A stretch of 29,191 nt of DNA from a virus (IMGVR_UViG_3300016476_000967:1-29191), one strand, 5' to 3'; positions 8,120 through 25,300 are shown, numbered from the stretch's first letter. The notes: generated from the letters alone by a model not told the origin. Numbers and translations are program-made.

Positions 8120-8351
8120 GTGTTAATCTCCACAATATAAATTCTTCTTTGGTTAGCCAATGATATTCAATGACTGGCTCACCTGGTCCTGTTATGATAC
8201 GTGTGCCTTTGTATGCATGTGTAAGCCAGATTTTCTTTCGACTTCTTGTACATCTGCGAGGAAGTAAAGAGAATGCCAGTTTCCAATTGCAGCGTTCTAA
8301 ATAAGGCTCTATATAATCTTGCCAACTTAGTGTGTATCCAGAGCCCATCAT
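8106..8351 (-). CDS. Hypothetical protein (start probably at 8351)
   Basis: ATGA overlap with the queE stop; WKLAFSLLPRRC..KKIWL pattern. Confidence 0.6.
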   Translation of the reverse strand: MMGSGYTLSWQDYIEPYLERCNWKLAFSLLPRRCTRSRKKIWLTHAYKGTRIITGPGEPVIEYHWLTKEEFILWRLTHGNI

Positions 8352-9214
8352 TTGCCCCAGCCATTGCCCCATAGGTCAACGTGCAGGCGAGGACTGTAGT
8401 TGTAGCCTTTGCTCAGTGCCCAGTCTGCAACTCGAACGCGGTTGCGTTCATAGGGAGTCACAACGCCACCTTGCGGCATTACATAGACTACGCCCATAAA
8501 TCCGCCTGCTCTAAATTCTTTAACTGCACGTTCTACTTCTGCAAAGTGCTGCTCAGTTTCTACTACAAATTTAAGATATACTCTTCCAAATTCTTGATAG
8601 CTGGCTACAATGTCGGGACAAATAGCTTCCTCCCACTTTTCGCCGCTTGCACTGAGTTTGGCGCTTACACTAAATGTAATTTCTTTATCACCTTGCATGT
8701 CTGGCATTTGCCACTGTACCATGTAATCTGCAAATCTTGACTGTATCTTTTGTGTTCCGTTTGTTTCAAACGTAATGTTTCTTAGATCAGACATTGCGGA
8801 ATGGCTTAACAAATCCTCATAGGCTCGTTGCCATCCCAGTAACGGTTCTCCACCTGTAATAACAAGATGAACATCGTTTCCGTTGTCTTGTATCCATTTA
8901 CCATTAGGCGTTAAGGCTGCTAGTTTGCCCACAAGTTCGTCTGTGTCATAAGTCGGGCTCAGCTCTTTAAATGCAGGATGCCAACTGGCATAGCTGTCGC
9001 AGCCGGTATTAACTAGTGGCAGTTCTTCAAAAGTTTTATATAGATGGATATTCTTTGCTACTTCATCTGCTTCGGTACTTTTTACACCGGGCGCGCAACC
9101 AAAGCTGCTGCAAGTAAAGTTGCAGCCAAAGGTTCGAAGAAATACGCTAGGCACGCCAACAAAACGACCTTCGCCTTGCGCAGAATAAAACAGTTCACTT
9201 ACTTTGATTTTCAT
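8348..9214 (-). CDS. queE: 7-carboxy-7-deazaguanine synthase QueE (radical SAM)
   Basis: ELFYSAQGEG..G.PSVFLRTFGCN, CDS, LVITGGEPLL, ETNGT, SAKL and SPRLHVDLWG are QueE hallmarks; queD and folE are nearby. Confidence 0.92.
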   Translation of the reverse strand: MKIKVSELFYSAQGEGRFVGVPSVFLRTFGCNFTCSSFGCAPGVKSTEADEVAKNIHLYKTFEELPLVNTGCDSYASWHPAFKELSPTYDTDELVGKLAALTPNGKWIQDNGNDVHLVITGGEPLLGWQRAYEDLLSHSAMSDLRNITFETNGTQKIQSRFADYMVQWQMPDMQGDKEITFSVSAKLSASGEKWEEAICPDIVASYQEFGRVYLKFVVETEQHFAEVERAVKEFRAGGFMGVVYVMPQGGVVTPYERNRVRVADWALSKGYNYSPRLHVDLWGNGWGK

Positions 9215-9497: not shown

Positions 9498-10677
9498 TGA
9501 TTAAGTTGACTACTTGAACCGCAGTCGCTGGGCCCAGCGTCCAACCCAAATGACCATGCCCGGTATTATAGAAAACTTTTGAATTGGTTTTGCTTTGGCG
9601 AATAACGGGCATCATATTTGGTGTCATTGGACGCAAGCATGCCCACTGTGTGTAATCGTGCGTATTGATATTTGGGAAGTTTGTATGAACCCAATTAAGT
9701 AAAGGTTCAATCCTATCACGACGAATGTCATAGTTTTCGCCTGCAAGCTCTGCAGTACCAGCAACTCTGAGTTTATTGCCCAATGTCGAAGTTACAATTT
9801 TTGCTTCGTCGTCTAATAGACTAACCTTAGGTAAATGCTTCGGATCAACATTATTAATAGTAATACTATAACCCTTTACAGGATAAACGCCGATGTCTTC
9901 TCGCAACTGTTTGGCCAATTCAACACTACCGACACCGTTTGCAATGACTACCGCATCGTGACTTTCTGCCAAAGATGCAATGTCATTTACTTTCCAGTTA
10001 TAAAAAAATATAACATTGTGCTGATGTTTTAGAAAATCTGCTAGCACATAGCAAAACTTATGAATATCACCAGTCCAATCGCTTTTAGTATATGTTGCTC
10101 CTACGATACCTTTGATATCTTTAAGTGCAGGATCAACTACGGGTACATATGCTGGATTAACTTCTTCACGATCTAAACCATTTGCATTATACAAAAACAT
10201 AACGTCCTGAGCATTTTCCCAATATGATTCTTTTTTGTAAAAATGCAAAATACCGCAATCGCTGCGATCAAACATTGCGTGTTCTATGTTTTGATCTTGA
10301 CAAATTTCGTCGTATAGTTTTCTTGACTCGATGGCCATACGTACAGTATCTGCAGTATTTCTGTTTGCATCACCTTTTAGAGTATGCCATAAGAATCTCA
10401 ATGTCCATCGCCACATTGAATAATCTAATCGCCATGGCTTAAATCTCAGTGGAGCATCTTTTTTGAACATCCACTTGATGCCCTTTACAATATTGCTCCA
10501 GCTGGTCCAAACTTCGCTATTACTGGCAGAAATTTGTCCGCCGTTTGCAAAACTGGTACGCATAGCAGGATATCGTTCCTGCTCATATACAGTTACGGTA
10601 TATCCTGCCTTTGCTAGATAATAGGCTGTGGTGATGCCGCTAATACCAGCACCCACTACTGCTACTCGTTTGCTCAT
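9475..10677 (-). CDS. dadA: D-amino acid dehydrogenase (DadA-like FAD oxidoreductase)
   Basis: VAVVGAGISG FAD motif, TSFANGGQIS, YPVKGYSIT, RVAGTAE, WACLRPMTP and NTGHGHLGWT. Confidence 0.88.
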   Translation of the reverse strand: MSKRVAVVGAGISGITTAYYLAKAGYTVTVYEQERYPAMRTSFANGGQISASNSEVWTSWSNIVKGIKWMFKKDAPLRFKPWRLDYSMWRWTLRFLWHTLKGDANRNTADTVRMAIESRKLYDEICQDQNIEHAMFDRSDCGILHFYKKESYWENAQDVMFLYNANGLDREEVNPAYVPVVDPALKDIKGIVGATYTKSDWTGDIHKFCYVLADFLKHQHNVIFFYNWKVNDIASLAESHDAVVIANGVGSVELAKQLREDIGVYPVKGYSITINNVDPKHLPKVSLLDDEAKIVTSTLGNKLRVAGTAELAGENYDIRRDRIEPLLNWVHTNFPNINTHDYTQWACLRPMTPNMMPVIRQSKTNSKVFYNTGHGHLGWTLGPATAVQVVNLINEKFKSN

Positions 10678-11285
10678 TGGGTTTTAAGTTTCTTTTGTAG
10701 ATAATTCAACAGAACGCCGTAAGCCGGAAGAATGACCAATAGGCTTACAATAATTTTAGTAATGCTGTGTGCAGCCGCTGCACTTACCCAATTATGCTCG
10801 TAAGGGCTACCAGCAACATTGGCAAAGGCCACATAATAGAATGTGTAAGTATCGATAATCATAGTTACGATGCTGGATACCGTTGGGGCGATCCACCATT
10901 GCTGATACTTTTCGCGGAAGTAACTAAACACATAAACGTCTAGCATTGTACTGACAGCGTAAGCACAGCCCGAAGCTAGACCAATACTAACAGCAATGCT
11001 ACTAGGAGCACCGCTTAGTGCCACAATCGCCATGCTAATTAAAATGGCAGGAATAAAGGACAATGTAACAACTACACGACCCATTTCCTTGCCGATCATA
11101 CGAACAGTTAGGTCAGTGGCAACGACTACCAAGGGAAAAGTAAATGCTGCATAGCTAATTACAGTTCCAAAAATTGGAAAGTTGTGAGTTACAATCCAGT
11201 TGCTAACAGCAATAACAAAAATTTGTAGAGCAACTAGTTTTGCAACTAAAACCCTATCTAACGTTCCTAAGATTTTTTCTAACAT
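10674..11285 (-). CDS. yhhQ: Queuosine-precursor transporter, YhhQ/VUT family
   Basis: About 6 TM helices; IAVSN, FTFP..VVATDLTVR..G, LDVYVF..R, WWIAP..S..IDT motifs. Confidence 0.88.
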   Translation of the reverse strand: MLEKILGTLDRVLVAKLVALQIFVIAVSNWIVTHNFPIFGTVISYAAFTFPLVVVATDLTVRMIGKEMGRVVVTLSFIPAILISMAIVALSGAPSSIAVSIGLASGCAYAVSTMLDVYVFSYFREKYQQWWIAPTVSSIVTMIIDTYTFYYVAFANVAGSPYEHNWVSAAAAHSITKIIVSLLVILPAYGVLLNYLQKKLKTQ

Positions 11286-11294
11286 ATTTTTCCT

Positions 11295-11798
11295 TTAAGC
11301 AAATAAATCTTCATTCCATTCGCGATGACCTTCGCGGAAAGCCATGTTGGCTTGTGTTTCGCGAACTTCAACACGATAGCACCATAGACGCTCTGCTTCG
11401 CCCGGTCCCCAATAGTCGGGAATATAAACACCGTTGACGAATTTGTATAATTGATCAGCAAGTCCTTCGCAACCAATACGTGGAAGAACAACGATTTTGG
11501 CCATGTTCCGCTCTTGCAGCATCTTAAATGTTTCTAGCTCAGGATCGTCTGCTGCAACGATTAGCGTATGGTCAAACTGATCTTCTAAAATCTTCTTTAG
11601 TTCTTTAAGTCCACCATAGTCTGCTGCCCAGTTGCGAGCATCTAGGTCATTAGTGCCAAAGTAAAACTTCATTGAGAAGCTGTATCCGTGGATTAGATTG
11701 CAATGACTATCTGCTCGCCATTGCCGATATGCACATGGAAATGCGTCGTGATATTCTTTTGTGCTAGTATATTTGTAAGTTACAGGTTGATTTGCCAT
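11295..11798 (-). CDS. queD: 6-carboxytetrahydropterin synthase QueD
   Basis: CNLIHGYS, ADYGGLK, FDHTLIV, GCEGLA and VEVRET T-fold motifs; SD AAGGAG. Confidence 0.88.
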   Translation of the reverse strand: MANQPVTYKYTSTKEYHDAFPCAYRQWRADSHCNLIHGYSFSMKFYFGTNDLDARNWAADYGGLKELKKILEDQFDHTLIVAADDPELETFKMLQERNMAKIVVLPRIGCEGLADQLYKFVNGVYIPDYWGPGEAERLWCYRVEVRETQANMAFREGHREWNEDLFA

Positions 11799-12688: not shown

Positions 12689-13146
12689 GAGTTTTTGGCA
12701 GCTACACGATCTGCGAGATATTGTTCGTGCTGTACCCACTTGCCTTTACGCATAAAGCCCCATTCACGTTGTTGGGGGCCTGGCATAAACAGAGTCCAGC
12801 ATGTAACATTAGGATCTAGTTCAATACGGTGAAAGCTTTTTGCGCTGCAAAAGCGAAAGTGCCCAGGCCCGCGCCATTTTGCAATTTCGCCGATCTTTTT
12901 GCCATTAGCATCGCATTGCGGAACCCACTCCCAATAACCACCTCTTAGGATAAGCGTAGCGTAAGGCCATGGATGGTCATGCAGATCATCGGGGTCTGAC
13001 TTAAGAAATTTATGAAGGAACACATTAAAGGGAAACCGCTTTCGGTCCTTAAGGAATAGATAATAGCGTTCGAGATATGGTTCATCGTTGATCCTGTCCA
13101 TTACAACTCGCTTGCGACCGAGTTTTTCTAGCAGCTTTAGAAACAT
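12685..13146 (-). CDS. Cupin-domain protein (cysteine dioxygenase-like fold)
   Basis: LHDHPW...LRGGYWE...FHRIEL...WTLFM two-motif cupin signature; SD AAAGGA. Confidence 0.8.
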   Translation of the reverse strand: MFLKLLEKLGRKRVVMDRINDEPYLERYYLFLKDRKRFPFNVFLHKFLKSDPDDLHDHPWPYATLILRGGYWEWVPQCDANGKKIGEIAKWRGPGHFRFCSAKSFHRIELDPNVTCWTLFMPGPQQREWGFMRKGKWVQHEQYLADRVAAKNS

Positions 13147-13177: not shown

Positions 13178-13206
13178 ATTATAAAATGAAATCACTACCC
13201 AGTCAA
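13178..13206 (-). promoter_or_regulatory. sigma70 promoter for the cupin-PRTase genes
   Basis: TTGACT-17 bp-TATAAT. Confidence 0.75.
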
Positions 13207-14504
13207 GGTTTAATAATACCGATATTGAGTTTGTCTCTGCTGATATTGCTAGCAACAAACGCCCATTCGTTATTGATCTTTACGGGCAGTATAAAACCTT
13301 TGTTAACATAATTTTGTGCTAGGCTGTTAATTGAATTTCTAACAGTCATAACAGGGCTTTGGTATTCAGTAAAAGAACCTGTGCCATCATTTATCCACAA
13401 AATATTAGATTCGCTAGTCAAAGTGTCCCAGCTAGCTAACCATACGTCGAGCTTACCATCATTATTATAATCAATAACTTTGGGAATGTACGAGCTTAAA
13501 CTGGTTTTTCTATATACAAGATTAGTAGCATCCGAAAATACAAAGTTTCCTTGATTCAAGTAAACCTGCATAATGTGTTCGTGATCCGCTGTGCCTTGCC
13601 TCACGCTTGCGCTGTCCAACGCGCTAATAACTATGATATCTTTAAGACCATCGCCATTTAGGTCTGCAACCACACAACTAACGTCGTGGCTTTCTTCATT
13701 TACACTATTTGTATCGTAATAGGGTTTTGGTAAATTATGTCCTGCAACGGGTTTTAGCAAACTGTTAAGTTCAAAAATTGCATTGTCAATTACAGGACCT
13801 TTATTACCGTCCAGGTTTAAATCAGTAATTACGATTTGGGGCTTGCCAGAATTGTTAAAGTCTCCTACACAAACACCCGAACCATGCATCCAATATGGGG
13901 GACTGCTGTTATATGTATGGTCAACAAAAGAAAAATTGCCACTACCGTCATTGAGCCAAATTTGACCGTAGCTGTTAATTACATCGATATCGCCGTCACT
14001 ATCTAAGTCCGCAGTGGTCGCACCGTGACTCCATGTTAATCCTGGCACAGTAACTTGCGCATGGCTAAGTCCGCGTCTACTTAGAAACACATAATTTTTA
14101 TTAAAATCATATGCGGGAGCATCTGTGAAACCTGCAAAAAAGATATCGTCGATGCCGTCATTATTGAAATCTGCAACCAGCGGCATGTTTACAGATGCAT
14201 TAAACTCACTGCCCAAAATAGAAACTGTAACATCTGAAATGCGATCTGCTGCAATTCTAAAAATCTTTACACTGGGGTCGGGGTTTACATTCACAGTCTG
14301 ATTGCTTGCGTACCATCCGGCAACTACAGCATACTTTTCTCCCGTGCCTGTAAAATCACCTACAGCAACACTCGGTACAAAACTGTAGTTTGAATCAAAG
14401 CTTACACTTGCAAGTCGGAGTTCAGCTTTAGCTTTTGGCTCGCTGCTGCCGCCACCGCATGCAGCCAAAGTTAGTGCCAACAAAAAAGGAATGACTTTGA
14501 ACAT
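13203..14504 (-). CDS. Lipoprotein with FG-GAP/VCBS repeats (beta-propeller)
   Basis: Signal peptide MFKVIPFLLALTLAA-C (lipobox); six DxNxDGxxD-type repeats (e.g. ADFNNDGIDDI, ADLDSDGDIDV, ADLNGDGLKDI, IDYNNDGKLDV). Confidence 0.85.
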   Translation of the reverse strand: MFKVIPFLLALTLAACGGGSSEPKAKAELRLASVSFDSNYSFVPSVAVGDFTGTGEKYAVVAGWYASNQTVNVNPDPSVKIFRIAADRISDVTVSILGSEFNASVNMPLVADFNNDGIDDIFFAGFTDAPAYDFNKNYVFLSRRGLSHAQVTVPGLTWSHGATTADLDSDGDIDVINSYGQIWLNDGSGNFSFVDHTYNSSPPYWMHGSGVCVGDFNNSGKPQIVITDLNLDGNKGPVIDNAIFELNSLLKPVAGHNLPKPYYDTNSVNEESHDVSCVVADLNGDGLKDIIVISALDSASVRQGTADHEHIMQVYLNQGNFVFSDATNLVYRKTSLSSYIPKVIDYNNDGKLDVWLASWDTLTSESNILWINDGTGSFTEYQSPVMTVRNSINSLAQNYVNKGFILPVKINNEWAFVASNISRDKLNIGIIKP

Positions 14505-14510
14505 TCCTTT

Positions 14511-14539
14511 ATTATACATATCACGTTATTTTAAGTCAT
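14511..14539 (-). promoter_or_regulatory. sigma70 promoter for the lipoprotein gene
   Basis: ATGACT-17 bp-TATAAT; ATG 6 nt after the -10 box. Confidence 0.6.
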
Positions 14540-15608: not shown

Positions 15609-16328
15609 TTACCTCGGAGCGAATTCCTGTTGCAATTTAATATTATCAAAGAATTCCTTCTTTGTGCCAGCATCGTCTTTAAATGCACCTTTTAGTACAG
15701 TAGTTTGTGTTAGCGAACTGTGCGCCATAATACCACGATTTTCGCAGCATCCGTGTACAGCTTGAATATATACACCCAAGTCTTGCGCGCCAGTTGCCTT
15801 TTCAATTTCTCGAGCAATATCATTAGCAAGTTCCTCCTGGAGAGTGCCGCGTCTTGCACACCATTGAGCGATGCGTGTATATTTTGAGAGGCCAATTAGT
15901 TTGCTAGCAGCAATGATGCCGATATAAGCAACACCAGATACAGGCTGATGATGATGGCTACACATGCTTCGTAACTCACTACGGACAACCAACATGCCTT
16001 CATATCGGTCTTGGCTGTCGTTTGGAAATGCGGTTGCGTCTGGTCTTGGGTCATAGCGTCCACTCATAATTTCATTGAAATACATTTTAGCTAATCGCTT
16101 GGCTGTACCTTTGCTGTTAGGATCTGTTTCTCTATCAATCAGCAGGGTATCTAGCACTTGCTCAAATGCCGCAGTTGCTTCTTTGATTAGTTCATCTTTT
16201 TCAACATCGCTAATGTATTCGCTGATGTTATCGCCTGCCCAAAAGCGTTTGTTATCTTGCTTAAGTCTATCACGGATAACTTGACTCAGGGGCTTTCCGT
16301 CTTCTTCTTTGTAATTTAGTTCTGCCAT
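15609..16328 (-). CDS. folE: GTP cyclohydrolase I FolE
   Basis: TAKRLAKMY, SMCSHHHQP, IGLSKYTR, LQEEL, HGCCENRG and KKEFF motifs. Confidence 0.95.
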   Translation of the reverse strand: MAELNYKEEDGKPLSQVIRDRLKQDNKRFWAGDNISEYISDVEKDELIKEATAAFEQVLDTLLIDRETDPNSKGTAKRLAKMYFNEIMSGRYDPRPDATAFPNDSQDRYEGMLVVRSELRSMCSHHHQPVSGVAYIGIIAASKLIGLSKYTRIAQWCARRGTLQEELANDIAREIEKATGAQDLGVYIQAVHGCCENRGIMAHSSLTQTTVLKGAFKDDAGTKKEFFDNIKLQQEFAPR

Positions 16329-16329
16329 A

Positions 16330-16917
16330 TTAATCTGTAATGGTTATTTGTCTAAGATCAGCATAGTTTACATGCTTGGGCGTAGGTCTGTCAAACTTTA
16401 CACCTTCCAATAATGCCAAACCTAACTCAGCTTCTTCGGGCGTTGGTTTATAGTGGTAACCAACTCGGAACTGCTTTTGTTCGATCCACGGCTTAATATT
16501 TAGGTTTCTGCCATCGTAGCGCATTAAAATTAATTTGTCATATGCAGCTCGATCATCTAATAGAATGGCACCGCCCCTGCCGATATGCAAGGGCTTATCG
16601 TGACCAAAGCTTAAGCATTGCATCATTCCAGGCCTATACATACCTTCTTCAAGTCTGCGAGCACTGTCCCAGATTCTAGTATCGTGAAACTGATACTCAC
16701 CAGTCCAGTGTTCGCCTTCTAAGCTATATCTTACGCCCAGTTTATGCATGAGCATTGGAATGCTTAGATATGTAAATGCCGTAAAACTGCAACTGCGAAT
16801 TCGATCGTGTCTAAAGCACAATTCAATAGCGTGAGTGCAGCAATCAGTCATAATTGCGTAAGGCGCGCCTGTGAATGCTGCCAGCTCACGCTCGAATTCG
16901 AAAATTTTATCGAACAT
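16330..16917 (-). CDS. Short DegT/DnrJ/EryC1/StrS-family PLP-dependent aminotransferase
   Basis: FERELAAFTGAPYAIMTDCCTHAIEL, FTYLS, WDSA, SFGHDKPL.IGRGGAIL (PLP lysine), YDGR and VGYHY; only 195 aa. Confidence 0.8.
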   Translation of the reverse strand: MFDKIFEFERELAAFTGAPYAIMTDCCTHAIELCFRHDRIRSCSFTAFTYLSIPMLMHKLGVRYSLEGEHWTGEYQFHDTRIWDSARRLEEGMYRPGMMQCLSFGHDKPLHIGRGGAILLDDRAAYDKLILMRYDGRNLNIKPWIEQKQFRVGYHYKPTPEEAELGLALLEGVKFDRPTPKHVNYADLRQITITD

Positions 16918-17980
16918 TGTTTAATAGATCAGTTGCACTAAAAAACTTTTCTGTTAGCGTCCTTGCTTGTCTGCGAATTAAGAATTTAACCATATCGTAA
17001 TTCTTCATGTGCTGAACAATTAAATTGCAAACAGACTCGCGATGCTGATTGTAGCTTCTCCAGCTTTCGGTCCATTCGCTGGGATACAGGAAAATGTTTT
17101 CATACATTTCGCTATAGCTCAAGCGATCTGGTACCATGGGAATAGCATCTACAATTGCACCTTCGTAGCAGCCAATGCCCAGTGTTTCCTGCAAGCTTGC
17201 ACTAAACACAACCTTAGCTTGACCTAGCAACTTGTGGTATTCGTCCTTGGACAACTGTTGATCCTGGCAAACCACAAACTCATATTGCGGCAATTGGCGC
17301 TGCAGATCTCTAAAGATTTCCACTTGCTTTTCTGGAGCAATACGATGCGGGAATAGCACAAGATCACGCTTTTCCATATTTTTGTATGGAGCAAGAGTAT
17401 CCTGCATATAGTCCATGGGCCAGCCTGTCCTAACAATTTTGTTAGGTGCAAACTGTTTGATAACTTTCGCATCTTCATAACCCAACAAGTTCTTAGCAAA
17501 CAAGTCGATATGGAATTCCGTTGCAAAATAGTTATAATCGATTGCGTGGTAGAAACTTTTCTCTGCGTGACGAACCCATGGAGTATCTCCGATAAGTCTG
17601 CCTAAAAAGTCGTGCGGATCATAACTACCGGCATGCCATAGTGCATGAATCTTGACAGGAATGCCAAGTAGCTCGCTCATGTATTTTAGATTTATGATAC
17701 CAGGATGCCACGCATCAGTAAACAGGAAATGATCGCCAGGGCTAACTGATCCGGAGCAAAATAAGCGGCCCATGCCCTCAACTTGTAAAGACTTATAGAT
17801 ATTAGTCCCACCAAAGTTAAGGAAAGCACCAGGAGTGGTTGCACTAGGAATATCCTTAGGCCCAGCCAAAATTTGAACATTGTGTCCTGCCTTTCTTAGT
17901 AGTTCGGGTACATGCTCTTTCCATTGAGCCGTGTACCTTGTTTCTACTGGCTCTAAATCGACTAAAAATACGTTAGCCAT
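16907..17980 (-). CDS. GT-B fold glycosyltransferase (family 4-like)
   Basis: FPHRIAPEKQ (R..K donor-binding motif), SLQETLGIGCYEG (E-x7-E motif) and PDRLSYSEM. Confidence 0.82.
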   Translation of the reverse strand: MANVFLVDLEPVETRYTAQWKEHVPELLRKAGHNVQILAGPKDIPSATTPGAFLNFGGTNIYKSLQVEGMGRLFCSGSVSPGDHFLFTDAWHPGIINLKYMSELLGIPVKIHALWHAGSYDPHDFLGRLIGDTPWVRHAEKSFYHAIDYNYFATEFHIDLFAKNLLGYEDAKVIKQFAPNKIVRTGWPMDYMQDTLAPYKNMEKRDLVLFPHRIAPEKQVEIFRDLQRQLPQYEFVVCQDQQLSKDEYHKLLGQAKVVFSASLQETLGIGCYEGAIVDAIPMVPDRLSYSEMYENIFLYPSEWTESWRSYNQHRESVCNLIVQHMKNYDMVKFLIRRQARTLTEKFFSATDLLNNVR

Positions 17981-17982
17981 TA

Positions 17983-18186
17983 TTACTGTTGTTCTGCGTT
18001 ATGTTTGTTCTGCCAGTGCTTGAATTTTTCAAACTTACGATATTGCTCACTGCGATACAGATCACGCTCGTCGAACTTGAGCATATTGTAACGGCAGTAG
18101 TCCTTATACTGCTCGAGATCTTCGAAGATTTTATTAACTTCTGGTTTCATTTTAAGATACTTCTCGATGTATTTAGGTTGAGACAT
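17983..18186 (-). CDS. Hypothetical protein, 67 aa
   Basis: SD AAAGGA; tight packing. Confidence 0.7.
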   Translation of the reverse strand: MSQPKYIEKYLKMKPEVNKIFEDLEQYKDYCRYNMLKFDERDLYRSEQYRKFEKFKHWQNKHNAEQQ

Positions 18187-18216
18187 TTTATTTTCCTTTT
18201 TCTTAGGGTTAATTTA

Positions 18217-18597
18217 TTAAGGTTTGTTGATATAAAGGTTGGCCGCCTGCGGCATAGCTTTTGCTAAATCTTGTTTAAGATGGTCTAACTCAGCCCACTG
18301 ATATCTTTCGCCGTGGTACGTTGAATTAATGCGTTTAATCTCGGACTGCATATCGCGCATATCCTCACTCATTTTGCCCATACGCCAATTAAGATTTTTC
18401 ATATCTTCATGCATTTGACGTAAAGGGCCGTATCTTGTGATAGGTTCGTTAGATTCCGGCTTTGTTAAAATAACCATCATCATTAATTGACGCAATGCAT
18501 TTATTACACGTTCATCTTTACTAGTCATCGCTTCATCGAACATATCGATAAATCGTTCTAGATCAAAGTCTGCTTGAATTTTTTCTCTAGATGCCAT
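18217..18597 (-). CDS. Hypothetical helical/coiled-coil protein, 126 aa
   Basis: Co-oriented ORF 2 bp after the upstream stop. Confidence 0.7.
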   Translation of the reverse strand: MASREKIQADFDLERFIDMFDEAMTSKDERVINALRQLMMMVILTKPESNEPITRYGPLRQMHEDMKNLNWRMGKMSEDMRDMQSEIKRINSTYHGERYQWAELDHLKQDLAKAMPQAANLYINKP

Positions 18598-18599
18598 GA

Positions 18600-19052
18600 T
18601 TAGATAGCGATTGTTTGATAGGGTTGTTTAATTTCGTACTTGATAATAGCACCATTTTCGCCATCTTCTGCTACTTCGATCCAAACAGCACGATTGGGAT
18701 AACGCTCGGCAATCTTATCATACAGATCATCTGCAATCATCTCACAGCTCTTAAAGTTTAACTCCAGTGTGCCTTGTTTGTAAAGATTTTCGAGCCAGCG
18801 TTTGAATTGAATAAACTCAATGTCTCGGTCATTGTGAAACACATCAATCCATACACGGAAATGAAAGATATGACGATGCGGAACGCCAAGGAAACTGACA
18901 TCGTATTCGTCGCCAGTTGCTAGCGCAGGATCAGTTGCTGCTGCTGGATACTTGTGAATTCCTTCTTTCTGGAAAGTAACCCAGATTTTACGATCTGCGC
19001 TATGTTTAATTCGTTCACGCTTTTCTGCCAATACTTGATCTCGTTGATCCAT
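18600..19052 (-). CDS. dpdL: DpdL-like QueD paralog (T-fold; putative CDG decarboxylase)
   Basis: EGIHKYP, LGVPHRHIF (the LxxxHRHxF signature I recall for DpdL), RDIEFI, SCEMIA and VAEDGENG; SD AAAGGAG and a TAATG overlap support the 19052 start. Confidence 0.72.
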   Translation of the reverse strand: MDQRDQVLAEKRERIKHSADRKIWVTFQKEGIHKYPAAATDPALATGDEYDVSFLGVPHRHIFHFRVWIDVFHNDRDIEFIQFKRWLENLYKQGTLELNFKSCEMIADDLYDKIAERYPNRAVWIEVAEDGENGAIIKYEIKQPYQTIAI

Positions 19053-19579
19053 TATGCTTCTCCTTTGGGGAACACTGGTGTATCGCCCACATAATCTTTC
19101 CAGTCGGTGTAGACATTGCGAGTTTGTAGTTCGTTTAGAGGATGACACCATACACCGGGGTTAGTATCACCCCAAGTGTTGTCATCAATCTTTAGTGTAG
19201 CATTGTAGTTGTACAAACGAATGTTTGGTAGCTTAACGCTAATCATTGGAATGAAAGTGTTATACTCGCACCAGCTTTGTTCGTGTAGATCCCGCGCATA
19301 CTCAACACCAAAGTCCAGTGTTACCCAATAGTCTTTAACCAGCAAGGGCTTAATCATATCATCCCATGCAGCCCAGTCGTATGGGTTTTGCGGATGGAAA
19401 CTTTGACTAGTTCCAAAATAAACATGACGAACATTGTGTTCTGTTAGTAGACCTACGATTTCGTCTACGGGTTTAATGCCCACAACAAAAAGAGTTTTTT
19501 CGCCCTTCATTGCAGTATTTTCAATTTCGGTGCCAACAAAGTAATCTACTTGTTGACGACCATCAGTATCAATTGCCAT
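19052..19579 (-). CDS. Hypothetical protein of the deazaguanine cluster
   Basis: Start MAIDTDGRQQ at 19579; YFVGTEIE..KTLFVVG, HVYFG..QSF, KIDD..NPGVW motifs; translationally coupled to dpdL. Confidence 0.7.
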   Translation of the reverse strand: MAIDTDGRQQVDYFVGTEIENTAMKGEKTLFVVGIKPVDEIVGLLTEHNVRHVYFGTSQSFHPQNPYDWAAWDDMIKPLLVKDYWVTLDFGVEYARDLHEQSWCEYNTFIPMISVKLPNIRLYNYNATLKIDDNTWGDTNPGVWCHPLNELQTRNVYTDWKDYVGDTPVFPKGEA

Positions 19580-20474
19580 TGTTATCCCAATAAATGTAAC
19601 CCCGGCTGTATCCTTGGGGTCTGTTAACGCCATCGGCAAACGCTTGTTGCCATTCTGTATCCCTATTGTAACCTTTAGTCCAGAAACTGTCAACAGTGAT
19701 GCTGCCGTTTTCGATCCAATATGCGGCATCTTGCATACACTTATAAAACTTGTCTGTTCTGGGGCTTGGAAAAACCATTGTGCAAGCTTTCCAGAGTAAA
19801 GTGGCAAAGTTAGTATCCACCTGCTTTTCAACTCCCATAACAACCAGTGCTTCGTTATTGAGCATATCTTTAATAAAGACATCGTTATAAGGACTTAGGT
19901 CAATAATAACATCGAACTTACCTTCATATTCACTGGTTAGAATATCGCCCCAGAGTTCTTTGTTACTGCGCCCAAACACAGTAATATCAAATTCTAAATG
20001 ATTTAATAAAATAGTATTATATGCAATCCAAGCAAGGAATCCGCTGCCCAGAATTAATAGTCGTTTACCGGGACCACTACGTTCAGCAATTTCGCGTATT
20101 GGCTGGTGTACAACGTTGATGCCGCAAGCAACTGGCTCAAGTATATATCTTGGATGACACTCTGGAACGGGAACATACTCCTTAGAGCGAACATTGTATC
20201 GGTCAGCGTAAGCTGGCTCTCCTCTTGTTGCAACATAGTCTCCTACTTTCACATCGTTAATTTTATTACCGACAGCAATAACTTTACCTAATCCTTCGTG
20301 ACCCTGCATATGCAAAGGTAAAGGGCCAAAGTTGCCTTGCATCATATCAATATCGCTGCGACAAACTCCTGTCATAGCTGCTTGGACACAGATTTCATCT
20401 TGTGCTAAAGGTGGCAATTCGTATGCAGTTTCGACAAAGTTACCTTTGCCAACTGTTGCTAAAACTCTATTCAT
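19569..20474 (-). CDS. MDR / Zn-dependent alcohol (sugar) dehydrogenase-like protein
   Basis: GVCRSDI and GHEGLG catalytic-Zn motifs, VKVGDYV, LEPVAC and ILGSGFLA Rossmann motif; lacks the structural-Zn Cys lobe. Confidence 0.85.
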   Translation of the reverse strand: MNRVLATVGKGNFVETAYELPPLAQDEICVQAAMTGVCRSDIDMMQGNFGPLPLHMQGHEGLGKVIAVGNKINDVKVGDYVATRGEPAYADRYNVRSKEYVPVPECHPRYILEPVACGINVVHQPIREIAERSGPGKRLLILGSGFLAWIAYNTILLNHLEFDITVFGRSNKELWGDILTSEYEGKFDVIIDLSPYNDVFIKDMLNNEALVVMGVEKQVDTNFATLLWKACTMVFPSPRTDKFYKCMQDAAYWIENGSITVDSFWTKGYNRDTEWQQAFADGVNRPQGYSRGYIYWDNNGN

Positions 20475-21358
20475 AGTTTTTCTATTTGCTTATGAATCCA
20501 GATATCTTGAGCTTGTTGCTCTTTCCAGTACTCAATGTTATTTAGGTTTAGCACAGCTTCTTGAATCATTTTCTTATAAGCTGATTCGGGGCATAGTCCT
20601 AGTTCATGTCTTACAGTGCCAGCAGGAGTATCGAAGCTAATAGAAATGTCAGTCTCGCCCAGTGAACGCCAATTGGCAGATAGAATATATTTGGTACTGC
20701 CGTATTGAAACTCCATCTCGCAAAAGTCATCTACATCGTAGACGCCATTCGGGTTGACTACGCCATAGTCTGTGCTGTCAATCTCATTCAGTTGCCAGCG
20801 TTGCAACGCTGTGGCGTAAAGCTTATTGCCTTTTGTGTAATCAACAAGAGCGCAATAATAGCTCAACATATGTGGAATAAGATCTCTACTTACGCCACCG
20901 AATGCAAGTTGTTTATTGGTAAACCAACTACCCGGGCTGGGAATACGATTATGATTATTCCAACGAATGTAAACAGTGTCTGATTCAGATGCCAAGCCTT
21001 TAAACTCGGCAATTTCATTCCTAAACTGATTATTCTTGACCATCATAAATTTAGTATTAGGATAGTCGCGAATTAGAGAAACCCAGTCGTAATGTGTTTG
21101 TACGCCTGGCTTTTCTACAAACACTAATTTTGCACCGTGATTACCAGCATGTCTTGCCAAATTAACGTGCGTGTAATTTGGAGTACAGATATGTACAGTA
21201 TCGAAATGACTGTGATCCGTGAATGCCGCTACGTAATCGCTGTAGTCTGCGCTTTTTACAGGATCCATGTCCACCGTAACGACTTCATGGCCGAGTTCTG
21301 TAAGCACAGTCTTGTAAAGCTGACCGATGCCCATTCCAATTACTAAACTTTTCATCAA
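20471..21358 (-). CDS. Gfo/Idh/MocA-family NAD(P) oxidoreductase
   Basis: VIGMGIG, ICTPNYTH, VFVEKP and GGVSRDLIPH motifs. Confidence 0.88.
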   Translation of the reverse strand: MMKSLVIGMGIGQLYKTVLTELGHEVVTVDMDPVKSADYSDYVAAFTDHSHFDTVHICTPNYTHVNLARHAGNHGAKLVFVEKPGVQTHYDWVSLIRDYPNTKFMMVKNNQFRNEIAEFKGLASESDTVYIRWNNHNRIPSPGSWFTNKQLAFGGVSRDLIPHMLSYYCALVDYTKGNKLYATALQRWQLNEIDSTDYGVVNPNGVYDVDDFCEMEFQYGSTKYILSANWRSLGETDISISFDTPAGTVRHELGLCPESAYKKMIQEAVLNLNNIEYWKEQQAQDIWIHKQIEKL

Positions 21359-21765
21359 TTTACTCGTTCAATATCCAGCGGCCCAGATAGCCAACATTCA
21401 GTTTCATCGTTGTACCAGCCTTCACCTTCTAAGAAGTCGTAGCTGTCTTCGTCGAACCCGTCAATAATACGTTGGCGTTCTTCTGCATCCATGTCTTCGG
21501 GAAACTCCCAATCGGCGTACCATCCATCATCCAACATATCCAATTCTGCACCGTCTTCAGCGTTATCACCGAAGTAGCTGTACATTTCGATACTGTCTTC
21601 GTTGTCTTCTCTGATGCCTTCGGGAGGGTTGTCGTCCGAAGTTTCTACAGTAAATGTACCCCACCTAAAACCGGTAATGCGTACAATGGTTTTACTATCT
21701 TTGACCCAGTATTCTTGTTCTACACAAGATTTCTTTTCTCTAGTAGAGATTTTCCAAGTAGCCAT
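21355..21765 (-). CDS. Very acidic hypothetical protein, 136 aa
   Basis: Asp/Glu- and Trp-rich ORF; ATGA overlap with the next gene; own promoter. Confidence 0.72.
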   Translation of the reverse strand: MATWKISTREKKSCVEQEYWVKDSKTIVRITGFRWGTFTVETSDDNPPEGIREDNEDSIEMYSYFGDNAEDGAELDMLDDGWYADWEFPEDMDAEERQRIIDGFDEDSYDFLEGEGWYNDETECWLSGPLDIERVN

Positions 21766-21771
21766 GATTGT

Positions 21772-21800
21772 ATTATATATTAATTAACGATCGTCGTCAA
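21772..21800 (-). promoter_or_regulatory. sigma70 promoter, probably giving a leaderless mRNA
   Basis: TTGACG-17 bp-TATAAT-6 nt-ATG; no SD. Confidence 0.7.
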
Positions 21801-21996
21801 AGTCTACACGCTCGTGGTCGTGTTCCCACTGTAGGCGCTCCAAACGCTTGATCTCGTCTTTGAGTGCCAAACGCTGCTTTTTCCATTCTGTAACCAAATT
21901 GGTTTCGCTATGGGGATGTTCACGTTCGTGAGCTGTGATCTTTTGATCCAATACTCTGTGGCTTTCTTTCAAATGTGCAATGCGACCTTCATACAT
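21784..21996 (-). CDS. DUF465/YdcH-like helical hairpin protein
   Basis: MYEGRIAHLKESHRVLDQKI...KKQRLALKDEI pattern; SD GGAGG supports the 21996 start. Confidence 0.75.
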   Translation of the reverse strand: MYEGRIAHLKESHRVLDQKITAHEREHPHSETNLVTEWKKQRLALKDEIKRLERLQWEHDHERVDFDDDR

Positions 21997-23563
21997 CTTG
22001 AGCCTCCAAATTGTTAAGTGCTGATTCATCCAAACCGCTATCATCAATATGATGATTGTCGGCTTCATCTCCGCCTTCTACTTCGAATAGTGTATTGAAC
22101 ATGGTTCCTGCGTTAACAGTCTTTTTACCAACTGCGCCCCGTGTCCCCACAATACTCATCCAATACTTGTTGTAATGTTCGACAAGTTCTTCTGCTTTGC
22201 CTCTATCGCTAGTTGCAAAGATATCGTTAACAATATCACGGAAGAATGTCCTATCATACATACGCATGACTTTTTTATCTGCGCTGGTTGCTACCAACAT
22301 TCCAGGAACAATGCCCGCATCATATTGTCTATTAGCTTCTTGTACAGCATGGATGTGAGTCCATACATTGTGTCCCATTTGTAGTGTATAGCTAAAACTA
22401 TCCCAGCTGGTTCTGCCTTCTTTACCGATTTTATTCAGGTCACCGGGCTTATAGATACAGACATCTTTAATAGCAAGTCTTTCGCTAATGGGACTAGAAA
22501 GGAACGTATCAAAAATTTTATCCTGTAGTACAGCATCTTCGAAAGAACGTGTGTCAGTGGCATATTTTTTATCGTCGACACTGGCCATCATTTGATAGCT
22601 CCACTTGCCGCGATCGGGTGTTACTACATCATAGTAAATTTGACCGTTAGCAGTTGCAAGGAACGGACTAGCGCAGTCGAAACTAATGGTAAATTGTTCA
22701 TTATGATATTTGCGAACTGCCCGCTGCACATCGGTTAGTAGGGTGGCCCACTCCAGTTTACTTGTGCCCAGAAAGTGCATCCAGTCATGTTTGCCTGGCT
22801 CAAGTAATCCGTCAAAGCGTAGTGCAACAAGTCTGCGTAGCAGCAGGTGTACATCGCACATGTTCTGACCGCCCATAGCCCAACCCTCAAAAGGCTGTGC
22901 GTATTGTTTTGGATCACAATACTTTTTCATGCGCTCATACCAGTCATCTGCTTCAGTATGATTCTCGCCTTGCAGCACATTTAAAAACTTGCAGCTACCA
23001 CTACGATTAGCCATGAAGTAATCGTTGTTGATGTAAGTACCTTGTACAGCTTCTGCGTATGTGCTAATACCTGTTGCCTTTTGACCTGCAGGACTACGTG
23101 CAACCCAGGCAGGAATATCTAGAATCATACCGCGATCCATGTAAGCATCTAGCCATTCCAAAACCTGCTTGCGCTTTTTGGATGCTTTGGGACAATTAGG
23201 ATCTTTCCAATTACCTTCCCATACACCTTTACCAATCTGGAAACCGCCAGAGTCGCCTAAGATAAAAGTGTTTGGATCGCGATTACGAACCATGTCGTCG
23301 CGCCCGTTGGTTTTGGCTAGATCTAAGTCTGCGTGACCCGCACTATAAAGACTCCATTTGTACTTGAAATAGCCTTCCTGATCATTCAACCAGTTCATGC
23401 CTTCGATGCCGTTTTCAAAGCCTGTAGGCACTCTTGCAGGGTCTATATAGTTAGGATCAATTCGCTGCTTACTAACATCACGTGAATAGAAGCTACTCAA
23501 TGCCGGCAAGAACACAGCATAATCACTCTGTTTACTTGTCAGATCGTCTATTCTTTTTGTCAT
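21989..23563 (-). CDS. dpdA: DpdA-family (DpdA2-like) DNA 7-deazaguanine transglycosylase, TGT fold
   Basis: GDSGGFQI, MILDIP, LNVLQG, GWAMGG, MHFLG and SFDCASP TGT motifs; no CxCxxC Zn site of tRNA TGT; phage context with folE/queD/queE. Confidence 0.85.
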   Translation of the reverse strand: MTKRIDDLTSKQSDYAVFLPALSSFYSRDVSKQRIDPNYIDPARVPTGFENGIEGMNWLNDQEGYFKYKWSLYSAGHADLDLAKTNGRDDMVRNRDPNTFILGDSGGFQIGKGVWEGNWKDPNCPKASKKRKQVLEWLDAYMDRGMILDIPAWVARSPAGQKATGISTYAEAVQGTYINNDYFMANRSGSCKFLNVLQGENHTEADDWYERMKKYCDPKQYAQPFEGWAMGGQNMCDVHLLLRRLVALRFDGLLEPGKHDWMHFLGTSKLEWATLLTDVQRAVRKYHNEQFTISFDCASPFLATANGQIYYDVVTPDRGKWSYQMMASVDDKKYATDTRSFEDAVLQDKIFDTFLSSPISERLAIKDVCIYKPGDLNKIGKEGRTSWDSFSYTLQMGHNVWTHIHAVQEANRQYDAGIVPGMLVATSADKKVMRMYDRTFFRDIVNDIFATSDRGKAEELVEHYNKYWMSIVGTRGAVGKKTVNAGTMFNTLFEVEGGDEADNHHIDDSGLDESALNNLEAQDV

Positions 23564-24315: not shown

Positions 24316-24344
24316 AGTTTATATGATTTATTTAGAAAAATCAA
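24316..24344 (-). promoter_or_regulatory. sigma70 promoter for clamp-dpdA, with an embedded CTAAATA late-like motif
   Basis: TTGATT-17 bp-TAAACT, followed by SD GGAG. Confidence 0.6.
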
Positions 24345-25300
24345 GTGTTTGCGTTTAAAATTTTGCCCATGGTCTGATGAGCTTTGATAGTGTGAAGTGC
24401 ACCGGGTTTTTTAATTTCGATCCAGTGCACTGTTAGTTCGGTACTAGTGGTAGTGATAATCTCGAACCCCAATTCAATGCAAGTATCAATAAGCAATTTG
24501 CTGGGCATCCAACTTCTGTAACCTTGCTCCACATATTCTACCATTTGTGGAACGTCACAATTATTATAACTAAACATTGCTACACCGCCTGGCCGTAGTA
24601 CATTATAGATGCTAGTCAAATATGCGCGAGTTTCTGCTAGCGGCAAATAGTTGAATACGTTCCAAGCAAAAACAAAACCAAATTGATTTTGTGGTAGCGT
24701 ACTTAAATCGAAGCTTTCCGGGCCAGTGTGACTTTTGAGTAAGTAGGGTCTTACTCTATTTCTATAAAATGGATTAAATTTATTAAGAGTATTATCTAAG
24801 AACTCTCGGTGTACGTCCACAATGTATAAGGGATCGCTTGCTACCATATGTTCAGTCCATGTGCCGTCACCTGGTCCGATTTCTAATCCAGGGTAGTGCC
24901 AGTCTGTATAGCTCCGTAATCTTACAATTACTTGACTTCTTGTCTCATCATTAATGTTTAGTAATCTATCGTTTCGCTCTGTTGGTACATCACTGCTGTT
25001 GGATCCATAGTAACCATTAATCATATAGCCGCGGGCAAGATATTCTTGTGTGCGCTCTGTGATTTCTTGATCAATTTCTCGAATTTGTTTATTAATATTA
25101 TCTTCAATTGAACACAATTTTTGTTCAATCAAATCTAAACTTGCTATGTTTTCTCCAATGCTATCTTTATAATTGGGATGCATCGGTATGTTTAGAGTTT
25201 GAGTCAAGTGGCCGTCAAGGATTTCTAATCCATCCCGAGCTGCTCTAGGATTAAATTCCAGCAAGCTATTTTTTAGTTTGACCAAGTCACTTAATTTCAT
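24341..25300 (-). CDS. Class I SAM-dependent methyltransferase with N-terminal coiled coil
   Basis: GLEIGPGDG motif I, IVD, FGFVFAWNVFNYL and VLRPGG. Confidence 0.82.
   Translation of the reverse strand: MKLSDLVKLKNSLLEFNPRAARDGLEILDGHLTQTLNIPMHPNYKDSIGENIASLDLIEQKLCSIEDNINKQIREIDQEITERTQEYLARGYMINGYYGSNSSDVPTERNDRLLNINDETRSQVIVRLRSYTDWHYPGLEIGPGDGTWTEHMVASDPLYIVDVHREFLDNTLNKFNPFYRNRVRPYLLKSHTGPESFDLSTLPQNQFGFVFAWNVFNYLPLAETRAYLTSIYNVLRPGGVAMFSYNNCDVPQMVEYVEQGYRSWMPSKLLIDTCIELGFEIITTTSTELTVHWIEIKKPGALHTIKAHQTMGKILNANT

Follow-up and report, generated by a model that had tools for sequence, protein, structure and literature searches.

The window analysed here is a 29-kb stretch (29,191 nucleotides) of DNA from an uncultured jumbo phage. 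Positions 15609-23563 of its minus strand hold a run of genes in the order dpdA3, DUF465, an acidic ORF, a Gfo/Idh/MocA oxidoreductase (Gfo), a zinc dehydrogenase (MDR), a 175-aa ORF, dpdL, two small ORFs, a glycosyltransferase (GT), a truncated DegT aminotransferase and folE. The genes queD, yhhQ and queE lie downstream (Table 1). All genes listed for this run by an earlier, sequence-only reading are present and correctly named, and the order and strand are confirmed within the 29-kb window. The run is a core module combined with optional genes and mobile small ORFs, not a single pathway.

The intergenic gaps along the run range from -11 to +30 nt. Such tight coupling is not peculiar to it: upstream, a clamp-like gene shares 4 nt with dpdA, and at the other end only 2 nt separate folE and the adjoining ORF. 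A mechanical ORF list contains longer versions of the 175-aa gene and dpdL, which are upstream read-throughs; the true limits of the former are 19052-19579, and dpdL starts at 19052. In relatives, many unrelated genes have been taken up between dpdA and folE.

Table 1. Genes of the run and of the downstream precursor pathway, with positions in the window.
Gene or product	Position	Strand	Evidence and status
dpdA, DpdA3-type guanine transglycosylase, 524 aa	21989..23563	-	Likeness to PA5oct DpdA3; core
DUF465 small protein	21784..21996	-	Pfam E 2e-10; optional passenger
Acidic 136-aa ORF	21355..21765	-	No family; passenger, position variable
Gfo/Idh/MocA oxidoreductase, glycoside 3-dehydrogenase-like	20471..21358	-	E 3e-6; optional, paired with MDR
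Zinc MDR dehydrogenase, polyol/threonine-dehydrogenase type	19569..20474	-	ADH_N E 1e-11; optional, paired with Gfo
175-aa ORF, partial alpha/beta barrel, weakly QueE-like	19052..19579	-	Near-core in this phage group
dpdL, T-fold QueD paralog, proposed CDG decarboxylase, 150 aa	18600..19052	-	LxxxHRHxF; core
126-aa ORF	18217..18597	-	No family; passenger
67-aa ORF directly before GT	17983..18186	-	Kept in uncultured relatives
GT-B glycosyltransferase, retaining GT4-type, clade A, 357 aa	16907..17980	-	Model and fold searches; core
Virus-type truncated DegT aminotransferase, 195 aa, without C-terminal part	16330..16917	-	DegT E 2e-12; optional, independent of Gfo
folE, GTP cyclohydrolase I	15609..16328	-	Pfam E 2e-38
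queD, CPH4 synthase	11295..11798	-	PTPS E 3e-14; phrog_2389 E 3e-36
yhhQ-type deazaguanine precursor transporter	10674..11285	-	TIGR00697, 83.8 bits (cut-off 50.95)
queE, CDG synthase, QueE-type radical SAM	8348..9214	-	phrog_2076 E 4e-50; QueE models E 1e-11 to 5e-9

The smaller genes differ in how widely they are kept. DUF465 occurs in 20 of 80 GT loci. The acidic ORF, which has no family match in profile searches, follows the GT in 14 representative loci and lies between dpdA and the GT in 3. The 126-aa ORF, also without a family match, is found in none of the 80 clade-A GT loci and in some other loci, while the 67-aa ORF is present in 73/80 clade-A loci. The 175-aa ORF is retained in 37/38 (clade A) and 31/34 (clade B) GT loci. 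In a fold search with its model (pLDDT 92), three of the ten highest-ranking matches are QueE chains; the best of these has a Z of 6.3, which STAS and phosphoesterase folds equal. A profile search gave no match to QueE, the CxxxCxxC motif is absent from all 72 members of the family, and the ORF has no match in phage phiST.

Deazaguanine genes

The 524-, 150- and 357-aa proteins of the window have no matches in Pfam or NCBIfam and were therefore identified by other tests. The first contains D104, D149, H263 and D296, which we take to be TGT motifs and which are invariant among 40 relatives; the Pfam TGT model alone matches one of 40 members, with an E of 0.2. It is 35% identical over 78% of its length to PA5oct QCG76197.1, a DpdA3 according to Cui 2023 (DS1 listing; PMC10516641). 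Profile comparison with the phiST-group DpdA3 gives a probability of 79 (E 1.6e-5). The 150-aa protein carries LGVPHRHIF, corresponding to the DpdL motif LxxxHRHxF, and is 59-62% identical to the DpdL of PA5oct and ACP17 and 35% to that of phiST.

FolE, QueD and QueE are all encoded in the window, along with YhhQ, which is rare in relatives (3/80 GT loci). The window, a 29-kb fragment of the phage genome, shows no queC. No true QueC was found in five related genomes (four near-complete relatives and Paride) either, where the sole match is NAD-synthetase-like by its motifs.

This gene set resembles that of phiST, whose virion DNA contains plain dDG (PMC10516641). FolE, QueD, QueE, DpdL with LxxxHRHxF and DpdA3 are common to both, and phiST has no QueC. 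The phiST DpdA3 is shorter, with 259 aa compared to 524 aa in the window, and our GT was not found in phiST, although positive controls were detected. The decarboxylase role of DpdL has the status of a proposal (PMC10516641). Expression of ACP17 dpdA and dpdL alone in E. coli yielded no dDG, for which the authors allow for missing enzymes (PMC10516641); the ACP17 GT sits between these two genes. The failure may be trivial, since the phiST genes failed likewise (PMC10516641).

The glycosyltransferase and its neighbours

The model of the 357-aa protein (pLDDT 92) has a GT-B fold. Its best match is sucrose-phosphate synthase of family GT4 (Z 26.1, rmsd 3.2, 318 residues aligned), and MshA and BshA score Z 24.6. 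The T4 alpha- and beta-glucosyltransferases are not among the best 50 fold matches. R213, K218 and E273 are invariant in 66 relatives from both GT clades, and E265 is invariant in clade A. Presumably, E265 and E273 form the E-x7-E loop, with R213 and K218 as the Arg/Lys pair for the nucleotide diphosphate. The enzyme is thus modelled as a retaining GT-B glycosyltransferase of the GT4 type, with a putative role on a DNA base. The two clades are 22% identical. They share the acceptor-domain invariants E10, R15, Y16, D121, P122, D124, W135 and E140 and are split by the donor loop, QETLG versus QDWVS. Within clade A, no difference in this loop sets members with Gfo apart from those without it.

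We scanned for loci centred on the GT, dereplicated at 90%, and counted those with 6 kb upstream in view. All 38 clade-A loci contain dpdA and dpdL; in the 34 clade-B loci the counts are 34 and 33. Six cultured records were examined, covering jumbo and T4-like lineages, and in all of them dpdL is at most two genes away from the GT. The GT is present in 23 GenBank records; 18 of these also match DpdL, and in the remaining five the GT matches are partial. The co-location is partly inherited, because a single syntenic phage group supplies most of the loci.

In PA5oct and Paride (Wroclawvirus), dpdA3, a clade-A GT and dpdL are adjacent, and the Gfo-MDR-175-aa block is present, as in the window. 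They also share with the window the order polB-clamp-dpdA-queE-exonuclease but lack its truncated DegT. The block is placed ~28 kb from dpdA in all 11 Wroclawvirus records. In PA5oct, folE and queD have moved away from dpdA and dpdL, while the GT has stayed with them. In Phosso, dpdA is ~170 kb from the GT. PA5oct DNA is reportedly resistant to G-site restriction enzymes (PMC12191111).

Because the GT and the two dehydrogenases stay with the dpd genes in many related phages, the DNA likely bears a sugar-bearing purine. We give a little less than an even chance to the proposal that the window cluster makes a glycosylated 7-deazaguanine in phage DNA, with the sugar set by a cassette. The main alternative, which we consider unlikely though worth weighing, is that the DNA contains plain dDG (or dCDG), while the GT and sugar enzymes act on a virion or host-surface glycan, or on a protein, and merely share an early replication operon. 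It would agree with phiST, where DpdA3, DpdL, FolE, QueD and QueE without QueC give dDG (PMC10516641), and with the 10/28 DpdL records that lack this GT. Jumbo phages carry glycan gene clusters (PMC7824862). The dpdA-folE locus accepts unrelated insertions, and DG has no hydroxyl to glycosylate. Against it stand the closeness of GT and dpdL in cultured records of very different genome types, the persistence of this link in PA5oct, and the exchange of two such divergent GT clades in the same slot with the same acceptor-side residues.

Optional sugar enzymes

The GT is core, while Gfo, MDR, GalE and DegT are optional. Gfo and MDR form a pair that travels only with GT clade A, and GalE is found almost only with clade B. 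The pair is missing from 25/38 clade-A and 34/34 clade-B GT loci. By DpdA cluster, in a sampling enriched for Gfo and DegT, GalE accompanies clade B in 52/53 and clade A in 1/55 cases, and Gfo with MDR accompanies clade A in 41/62 and clade B in 0/54. The GT clade switches six times on the DpdA tree. GalE tracks it in about 5/6 independent pairs, never in the opposite direction, but such pair tests attain no more than p 0.06 for GalE and p 0.125 for Gfo.

The best solved relative of Gfo is DgpA (E 5e-12). Gfo is downstream of dpdA in 80/80 loci and before MDR in 78, the remaining two loci ending there. Apart from Paride, K83, D159 and H163 of Gfo are retained in 78/78 relatives, and C38, H59, E60 and E113 of MDR in 76/76. 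Paride Gfo has lost the NAD loop and the lysine, and its MDR two zinc ligands.

The DegT protein has 195 aa compared to about 370 aa for two-domain DegT/DnrJ/EryC1/StrS enzymes, and matches stop near position 250 of 375-390-aa enzymes. Clusters of this truncated form are virus-only (192-199 aa). The Schiff-base Lys108 aligns with solved DegT enzymes, and D84, S103 and K108 are retained in 83/83 members.

WlbA/WlbC and GnnA/GnnB combine a Gfo-family dehydrogenase and a DegT-family enzyme in one operon. The sequence-only reading had invoked such a pair, and also a remodelling of the C7 substituent by the redox enzymes and aminotransferase. Its expectation that GT, Gfo and MDR co-occur with dpdA and dpdL is borne out far beyond the window; the amino-sugar pair is not supported, and the C7 remodelling is not supported as a general mechanism. 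In the window Gfo and DegT are not adjacent, DegT is half length, and the fixed partner of Gfo is MDR. DegT is found mostly with GalE and GT clade B (64/80 loci). As Gfo and DegT change in the same direction in none of nine independent pairs on the DpdA tree, a fixed amino-sugar pair is unsupported.

For the window lineage only, Gfo could still produce a 3-keto NDP-sugar that the truncated DegT aminates and the GT attaches to the deazaguanine, which we regard as rather improbable. All three genes are intact in the window, Gfo and DegT with their catalytic residues, and they occur together in 11 DpdA clusters, the window's included. One variant of a GT loop is over-represented alongside DegT (10/14 vs 6/32). 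The DegT family can serve NDP-sugar pathways, because in a relative a paralog adjoins GDP-mannose dehydratase-like and acetyltransferase-like genes. Beside the missing co-variation, however, 22/33 Gfo clusters with folE in view lack DegT and 29/40 DegT clusters lack Gfo, S-SCSM2R encodes a close relative of DegT within an unrelated glycan island, and this route leaves MDR without a role.

It is very unlikely that Gfo, MDR and DegT rework the C7 carbon (to formyl, hydroxymethyl or aminomethyl) and so supply a handle for the GT. This would resolve the missing-acceptor problem, and base rather than sugar chemistry is hinted at because Gfo-MDR always precede the weakly QueE-like 175-aa gene and, in Paride, have relocated together with it. 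Gfo and MDR cannot generally make the GT acceptor, though, because most GT loci lack them and the Paride copies have lost catalytic residues. Gfo is most closely related to glycoside dehydrogenases, and no recurrent carboxylate-activating enzyme was found among the dpdA-folE intervening genes, as judged from clustering.

A possible glycosylated 7-deazaguanine

For the proposed glycosylated base, FolE, QueD and QueE are predicted to provide CDG. Beyond CDG we infer every chemical step. In place of QueC, DpdL would process the C7 carboxyl, the GT4-type enzyme would use a nucleotide sugar to attach one hexose, and DpdA3 would put the modified base in place of guanine in DNA. Addition to the free base rather than to DNA is slightly favoured, because the solved folds closest to the GT belong to GT4 enzymes acting on small molecules and dpdL is the gene most tightly linked to it. 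Candidate acceptors are N2 and, on the major-groove side, C7 or a substituent there. Since 7-deazaguanine has no hydroxyl, either a step as yet unexplained or C- or N-glycosylation of an unusual kind is needed.

The swappable cassette likely determines the sugar. A clade-B GT with GalE would use a galactose-type donor, and clade-A GTs, such as that of the window, a default donor that is probably of the glucose type. Gfo and MDR, present in about a third of clade-A lineages, would oxidize one sugar hydroxyl to a ketone and reduce it with the other stereochemistry, likely as a two-enzyme epimerase; the resemblance to DgpA makes C3 the best guess for the position. The truncated DegT would be an additional enzyme tied to certain lineages, which may act separately by aminating a keto sugar and is not an obligate partner of Gfo. 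YcjS belongs to the Gfo family and YcjQ is a zinc MDR. E. coli YcjS/YcjQ/YcjR employ two sugar dehydrogenases via a 3-keto glycoside (PMC11543891). The window pair is alike in combining Gfo and MDR, whereas the Ycj system and DgpA are catabolic, with a separate isomerase and no link to DNA modification.

Could the product be a small-molecule pterin or deazapurine glycoside made from FolE/QueD products, or a glycosylated tRNA base, instead of DNA? Bacterial deazapurine glycosides such as huimycin are known, and tetrahydrobiopterin glucosyltransferases are GT4 enzymes among our fold matches (Z 21.3, ranks 30-31), but these lie below the top Z of 26.1, tied with many GT4s, and the PA5oct GT goes with dpdL/dpdA and not folE/queD, so that we give this little credence.

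Glycosylated modified bases have precedents. In T4, a GT-B enzyme produces glucosyl-5-hydroxymethylcytosine as anti-restriction cover, and other glycosylated pyrimidines exist. There the acceptor is a pyrimidine hydroxyl, whereas the window base would be a purine analogue without a known hydroxyl. Galactosyl- and mannosyl-queuosine of animal tRNA carry a sugar, varying by enzyme, on a 7-deazaguanine derivative; this is RNA, glycosylated at the cyclopentenediol by enzymes unrelated to the window GT.

If the proposal is true, the cassettes would comprise clade B with GalE, clade A alone, and clade A with a Gfo/MDR epimerase leading to a rare hexose, with DegT adding an amine. Should DG itself receive the sugar, the GT would act as a retaining C- or N-glycosyltransferase on a nucleobase. 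It is possible, though short of probable, that the DNA of a large phage group, with jumbo and T4-like members, contains a glycosylated purine, a 7-deazaguanine bearing a sugar, and that the phages vary this sugar by cassette swaps to keep ahead of host glycosylases and nucleases that target plain 7-deazaguanine.

Gene run and 7-deazaguanine backbone

The window, one virus record of 29,191 bases, has a gene order in common with the Pseudomonas jumbo phages Paride and PA5oct: polB, a clamp-like gene, dpdA through to queE, and an exonuclease. All genes of the run lie on the minus strand, with spacings of -11 to +30 nt. Pfam, NCBIfam or PHROGs assign families to FolE, QueD, QueE, the Gfo/Idh/MocA enzyme (Gfo), the MDR dehydrogenase (MDR), DUF465 and the DegT fragment. 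The tightly coupled, one-strand run described in the sequence-only reading stands. The same databases give no family name for dpdA, the glycosyltransferase gene (GT) or a 175-aa gene.

The 524-aa product of dpdA matches PA5oct QCG76197.1 (35% identity, E 8e-75), which is listed as DpdA3 in supplement DS1 of Cui 2023 (PMC10516641). Its profile aligns with the phiST-group DpdA3 at E 1.6e-5, and a PDB sequence search with DpdA gave no match. The 150-aa protein carries the DpdL signature of Cui 2023 and also matches the DpdL proteins of that study. QueC was not found in four near-complete relatives or in Paride, apart from one match resembling an NAD synthetase. Going by its motifs, we take this match to be an NAD synthetase. 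Together with FolE, QueD and QueE, these identities point to a QueC-less DpdA3/DpdL backbone, predicted to be of the type that gives 7-deazaguanine nucleoside (dDG) in Cellulophaga phage phiST. Further genes of the window and of related loci are listed below.

Coordinates of features in the window and in related loci (L-numbers are handles of retrieved loci, with local coordinates)
Feature	Location	Context	Occurrence or remark
D-amino acid dehydrogenase (DadA-like)	window 9475-10677	between queD and queE	E 4e-132; 1/80 relative loci
YhhQ-type preQ0/preQ1 transporter	window 10674-11285	between queD and queE	3/80 relative loci
Cupin (cysteine-dioxygenase-like) gene	window 12685-13146	often directly after GT	63/80 clade-A loci
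FG-GAP repeat lipoprotein-like gene	window 13203-14519		
SAM methyltransferase and SPASM/twitch radical SAM gene	window 24341-26423	between polB and clamp-like gene	methyltransferase also in 10/80 clade-A loci
Paride_0119, short NAD-dependent epimerase-like gene, 172 aa	L001:13803-14321	between dpdL and queE	gene of its length at the equivalent place in PA5oct
Paride_0167-0169, homologs of Gfo, MDR and 175-aa gene	OR805295.1 122139-124416; L422:6140-8417		annotated hypothetical
Short UDP-glucose-dehydrogenase-like gene, about 265 aa	L026:11073-11888	before folE or clamp gene	many loci
PAPS-reductase-family gene and two unknown genes	Xanthomonas phage X1, L004:8335-11104	between folE and GT	
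Two different GT-B genes	Synechococcus phage BUCT-ZZ01, L005:7010-11167	flanking dpdA-dpdL	
Weak GT1-domain gene	Vibrio phage D479, L342:7071-9392	two genes from radical SAM gene, far from dpdL	
Second truncated DegT	L340:504-2687 (G001)	between acetyltransferase-like and GDP-mannose 4,6-dehydratase-like genes	perosamine-type set, far from deazaguanine genes

The glycosyltransferase beside dpdA and dpdL

The 357-aa GT, modelled from a 66-row alignment (pLDDT 92), adopts a GT-B fold most like that of retaining GT4 enzymes. The closest viral structure is the protein of phage ACP17 (TM 0.88). Residues R213, K218 and E273 are invariant in 66/66 rows, and E265 in 46/46 rows of the clade to which the window GT belongs (clade A). 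The sole match in PDB sequence searches was WlaC, at E 0.12. The T4 glucosyltransferases are missing from the fold-match lists, which is not evidence of difference. Clustering of the family at 90% identity gives at least 8000 clusters, and Pfam has no name for it.

IMG/VR was scanned with the window GT (best 80 of 331) and with the BUCT-ZZ01 GT, which is 25% identical to it (best 80 of 597); a single-sequence locus scan with the ACP17 GT returned 1 locus. Both larger scans reach the same slot in the same jumbo-phage group. After dereplication at 90%, and with clusters having less than 6 kb upstream in view dropped (12/50 and 2/36), dpdA lies beside the GT in 38/38 and 34/34 clusters, respectively, and dpdL in 38/38 and 33/34. 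The GT is part of a core module with dpdA and dpdL, and passes the co-occurrence check set out in the sequence-only reading. In all six cultured records examined, dpdL is at most two genes from the GT. The order is dpdA-GT-dpdL in Paride, PA5oct and ACP17, GT-dpdA-dpdL in X1, dpdA-dpdL-GT in BUCT-ZZ01 and dpdL-GT in Phosso, the dpdA of X1 and BUCT-ZZ01 being recognised through clustering with the ACP17 protein. The two GT-B genes of BUCT-ZZ01 could mean a disaccharide.

The 175-aa gene is found near the GT in 37/38 and 31/34 dereplicated clusters of the window-GT and BUCT-ZZ01-GT scans. Searches for it in Phosso, X1 and BUCT-ZZ01, all of which carry the GT, gave no match, so it is not universal among GT phages. 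Its model is a partial barrel, weakly QueE-like (Z 6.3) and devoid of the cysteine motif. We rejected a QueE copy on the weak structure match, a negative profile test and Atlas matches below the lead threshold.

A probable exchangeable sugar cassette

Two GT clades, A and B (the latter including BUCT-ZZ01), replace each other across loci. They have N-domain residues in common and differ in the donor loop. Loci ending inside dpdA or with no GT in view were dropped and 246 were kept; the cassette was counted in 116 DpdA clusters from all scans, a set hence enriched for Gfo and DegT. In this enriched set the nucleotide-sugar epimerase gene GalE, assigned by TIGR01179 just above the cut-off, accompanies clade B in 52/53 clusters and clade A in 1/55, and Gfo with MDR accompanies clade A in 41/62 and clade B in 0/54. 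The unenriched GT scans gave Gfo with MDR in 13/38 clade-A and 0/34 clade-B clusters, and Gfo is absent genome-wide from five large clade-B genomes, a separate positive control having matched. A FastTree phylogeny of DpdA implies 6 state changes for GT clade, 6 for GalE, 11 for Gfo and 7 for DegT. Across independent pairs, GalE goes with clade B in about 5/6 and never the reverse (p 0.06, above 0.05), and Gfo with clade A in about 4/6, again never the reverse (p 0.125, above 0.05). The strongest indication that the GT actively transfers a sugar, and that this sugar varies, is that a nucleotide-sugar epimerase moves along with it.

GalE was not found in the 21 kb viewed of BUCT-ZZ01, which carries a clade-B GT. 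Genes resembling UDP-glucose dehydrogenase flank the module on one side or the other in loci of both GT clades; the short ones are rarely seen with DegT (3/40 DegT clusters). The version of the cassette differs among cultured PA5oct, Paride, ACP17, Phosso and BUCT-ZZ01: the GT is of clade A in PA5oct and Paride (Paride_0116), clade-A-like in Phosso and ACP17, and of clade B in BUCT-ZZ01.

A single-sequence scan with the window Gfo gave 2 loci, so an alignment was needed. In the resulting Gfo-centred scan (best 80 of 477), dpdA lies upstream in 80/80 loci and MDR is next in 78/80, which upholds the proposed link of both genes to dpdA; DegT occurs in 10/80 and GalE in 1/80. Among bacterial genome loci, 2/79 Gfo genes have an MDR partner; one lies on a phage-like contig that contains the complete module, the other on a short contig that includes part of the 175-aa gene. 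PAOW01000007.1 (locus L343), a contig of an archaeal MAG, contains polB, dpdA, Gfo, MDR, an unknown gene, dpdL and GT, and is probably a mis-binned phage.

Gfo retains the EKP lysine, D-x3-H and, following its second strand, an acidic residue that we take to be NAD-type. MDR retains C38, H59, E60 and E113, the pattern of polyol dehydrogenases; its second Rossmann strand is not followed by an acidic residue, and this may point to NADPH. The best solved relative of Gfo is DgpA (E 5e-12), reported to be a glycoside 3-oxidase (PMC11239390). Because the oxidase and the reductase are never separated, the pair may act in epimerisation through a ketone; two sugar dehydrogenases of the E. coli Ycj system act via 3-keto glucosides (PMC11543891). 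Against epimerisation, the clade-A donor loop is identical with and without Gfo/MDR; the clade-A GT alignment contains no clean Gfo- or DegT-specific residue.

Also against it, the Gfo-MDR-175-aa block lies about 28 kb from dpdA in Wroclawvirus (11/11 records), where both enzymes are full length in all 11. Paride has lost cofactor residues in both (Gfo G8K, G10K, G12D and K83I; MDR C38S and H59C), while other relatives keep Gfo G8, G12 and K83 in 78/78 and MDR C38 and H59 in 76/76. This joint decay supports a putative two-step unit, and the substitutions show that its predicted catalysis would be dispensable in Paride, which retains dpdA3-GT-dpdL.

Candidate products of the module

We favour, tentatively and at somewhat less than even confidence, a 7-deazaguanine glycosylated with a sugar that varies. 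The acceptor is its weakest step, because the 7-deazaguanine base has no hydroxyl. A search for TET/JBP enzymes as the source of a hydroxymethyl acceptor gave no match in 5 relatives, but no positive control matched either, so the result carries no information.

A real rival, rather unlikely in our estimate, is that the DNA carries plain dDG and the GT serves something else.

The GT profile has no match in phiST, where plain dDG was measured, nor in RHph_I1_18, Bakedbeans, Ahp1_CNU-2021, D479 and MA9V-3, and does match X1, BUCT-ZZ01 and Phosso; RHph_I1_18 and D479 contain other GT1-domain genes distant from dpdL. Thus there is a plain-dDG system without the GT and a separate branch with it. 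GenBank phages yield 23 records with the GT, 18 of which also give a DpdL match; of 28 DpdL records, 10 are without the GT. A section of PMC12191111 reports that PA5oct DNA withstands five enzymes, with a pattern attributed to a modified G within GA or GG; base identification is given there for phages other than PA5oct only. Expression of dpdA and dpdL from ACP17 or phiST in E. coli yielded no dDG, as reported in Cui 2023.

An amino-sugar route is doubtful and conceivable only as a lineage-specific extra. The 195-aa DegT is a member of a short, virus-only family in which 83/83 members retain the PLP aspartate and lysine; its most likely role is that of a sugar aminotransferase. In the DegT-centred scan (best 80 of 136), folE is downstream in 79/80 loci, GalE is present in 64/80, MDR in 14/80 and Gfo in 11/80. 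DegT is tied less strongly to the DNA module than Gfo/MDR are. A WlbA/WlbC-type pairing of Gfo with DegT, proposed in the sequence-only reading, is rejected on the low overlap of the two sets of loci and on independent pairs, 0/9 of which change in the same direction. In a relative, a more distant DegT member adjoins a gene resembling GDP-mannose dehydratase, and another lies within a glycan island of S-SCSM2R; island-type genes are nearby in 14/39 DegT clusters vs 7/51 without DegT. Remodelling of the C7 substituent, also proposed earlier, and a small-molecule or tRNA product are each very unlikely.

The phage derivatives in the table of Cui 2023 have small C7 groups only, and the parts covered do not discuss a GT. 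Passages of Iyer 2021 and of a 2026 jumbo-phage review describe deazaguanine genes in such phages and draw no link to a GT. No glycosylated deazaguanine in DNA was found in a literature search that mostly lacked subscription journals, the 2024 deazaguanine review and supplements. Vibrio defence glycosylases against plain 7-deazaguanine DNA are common and mostly spare preQ0 DNA, according to a preprint (bioRxiv 2025.10.29.685425). Such enzymes are a plausible selective reason for an added sugar. The glycosylated DNA bases known to us are all pyrimidines. If the favoured reading, a glycosylated 7-deazaguanine, is true, a purine analogue bearing a sugar would be a DNA base of a new class, and the glycosyltransferase chemistry behind it would likewise be new.
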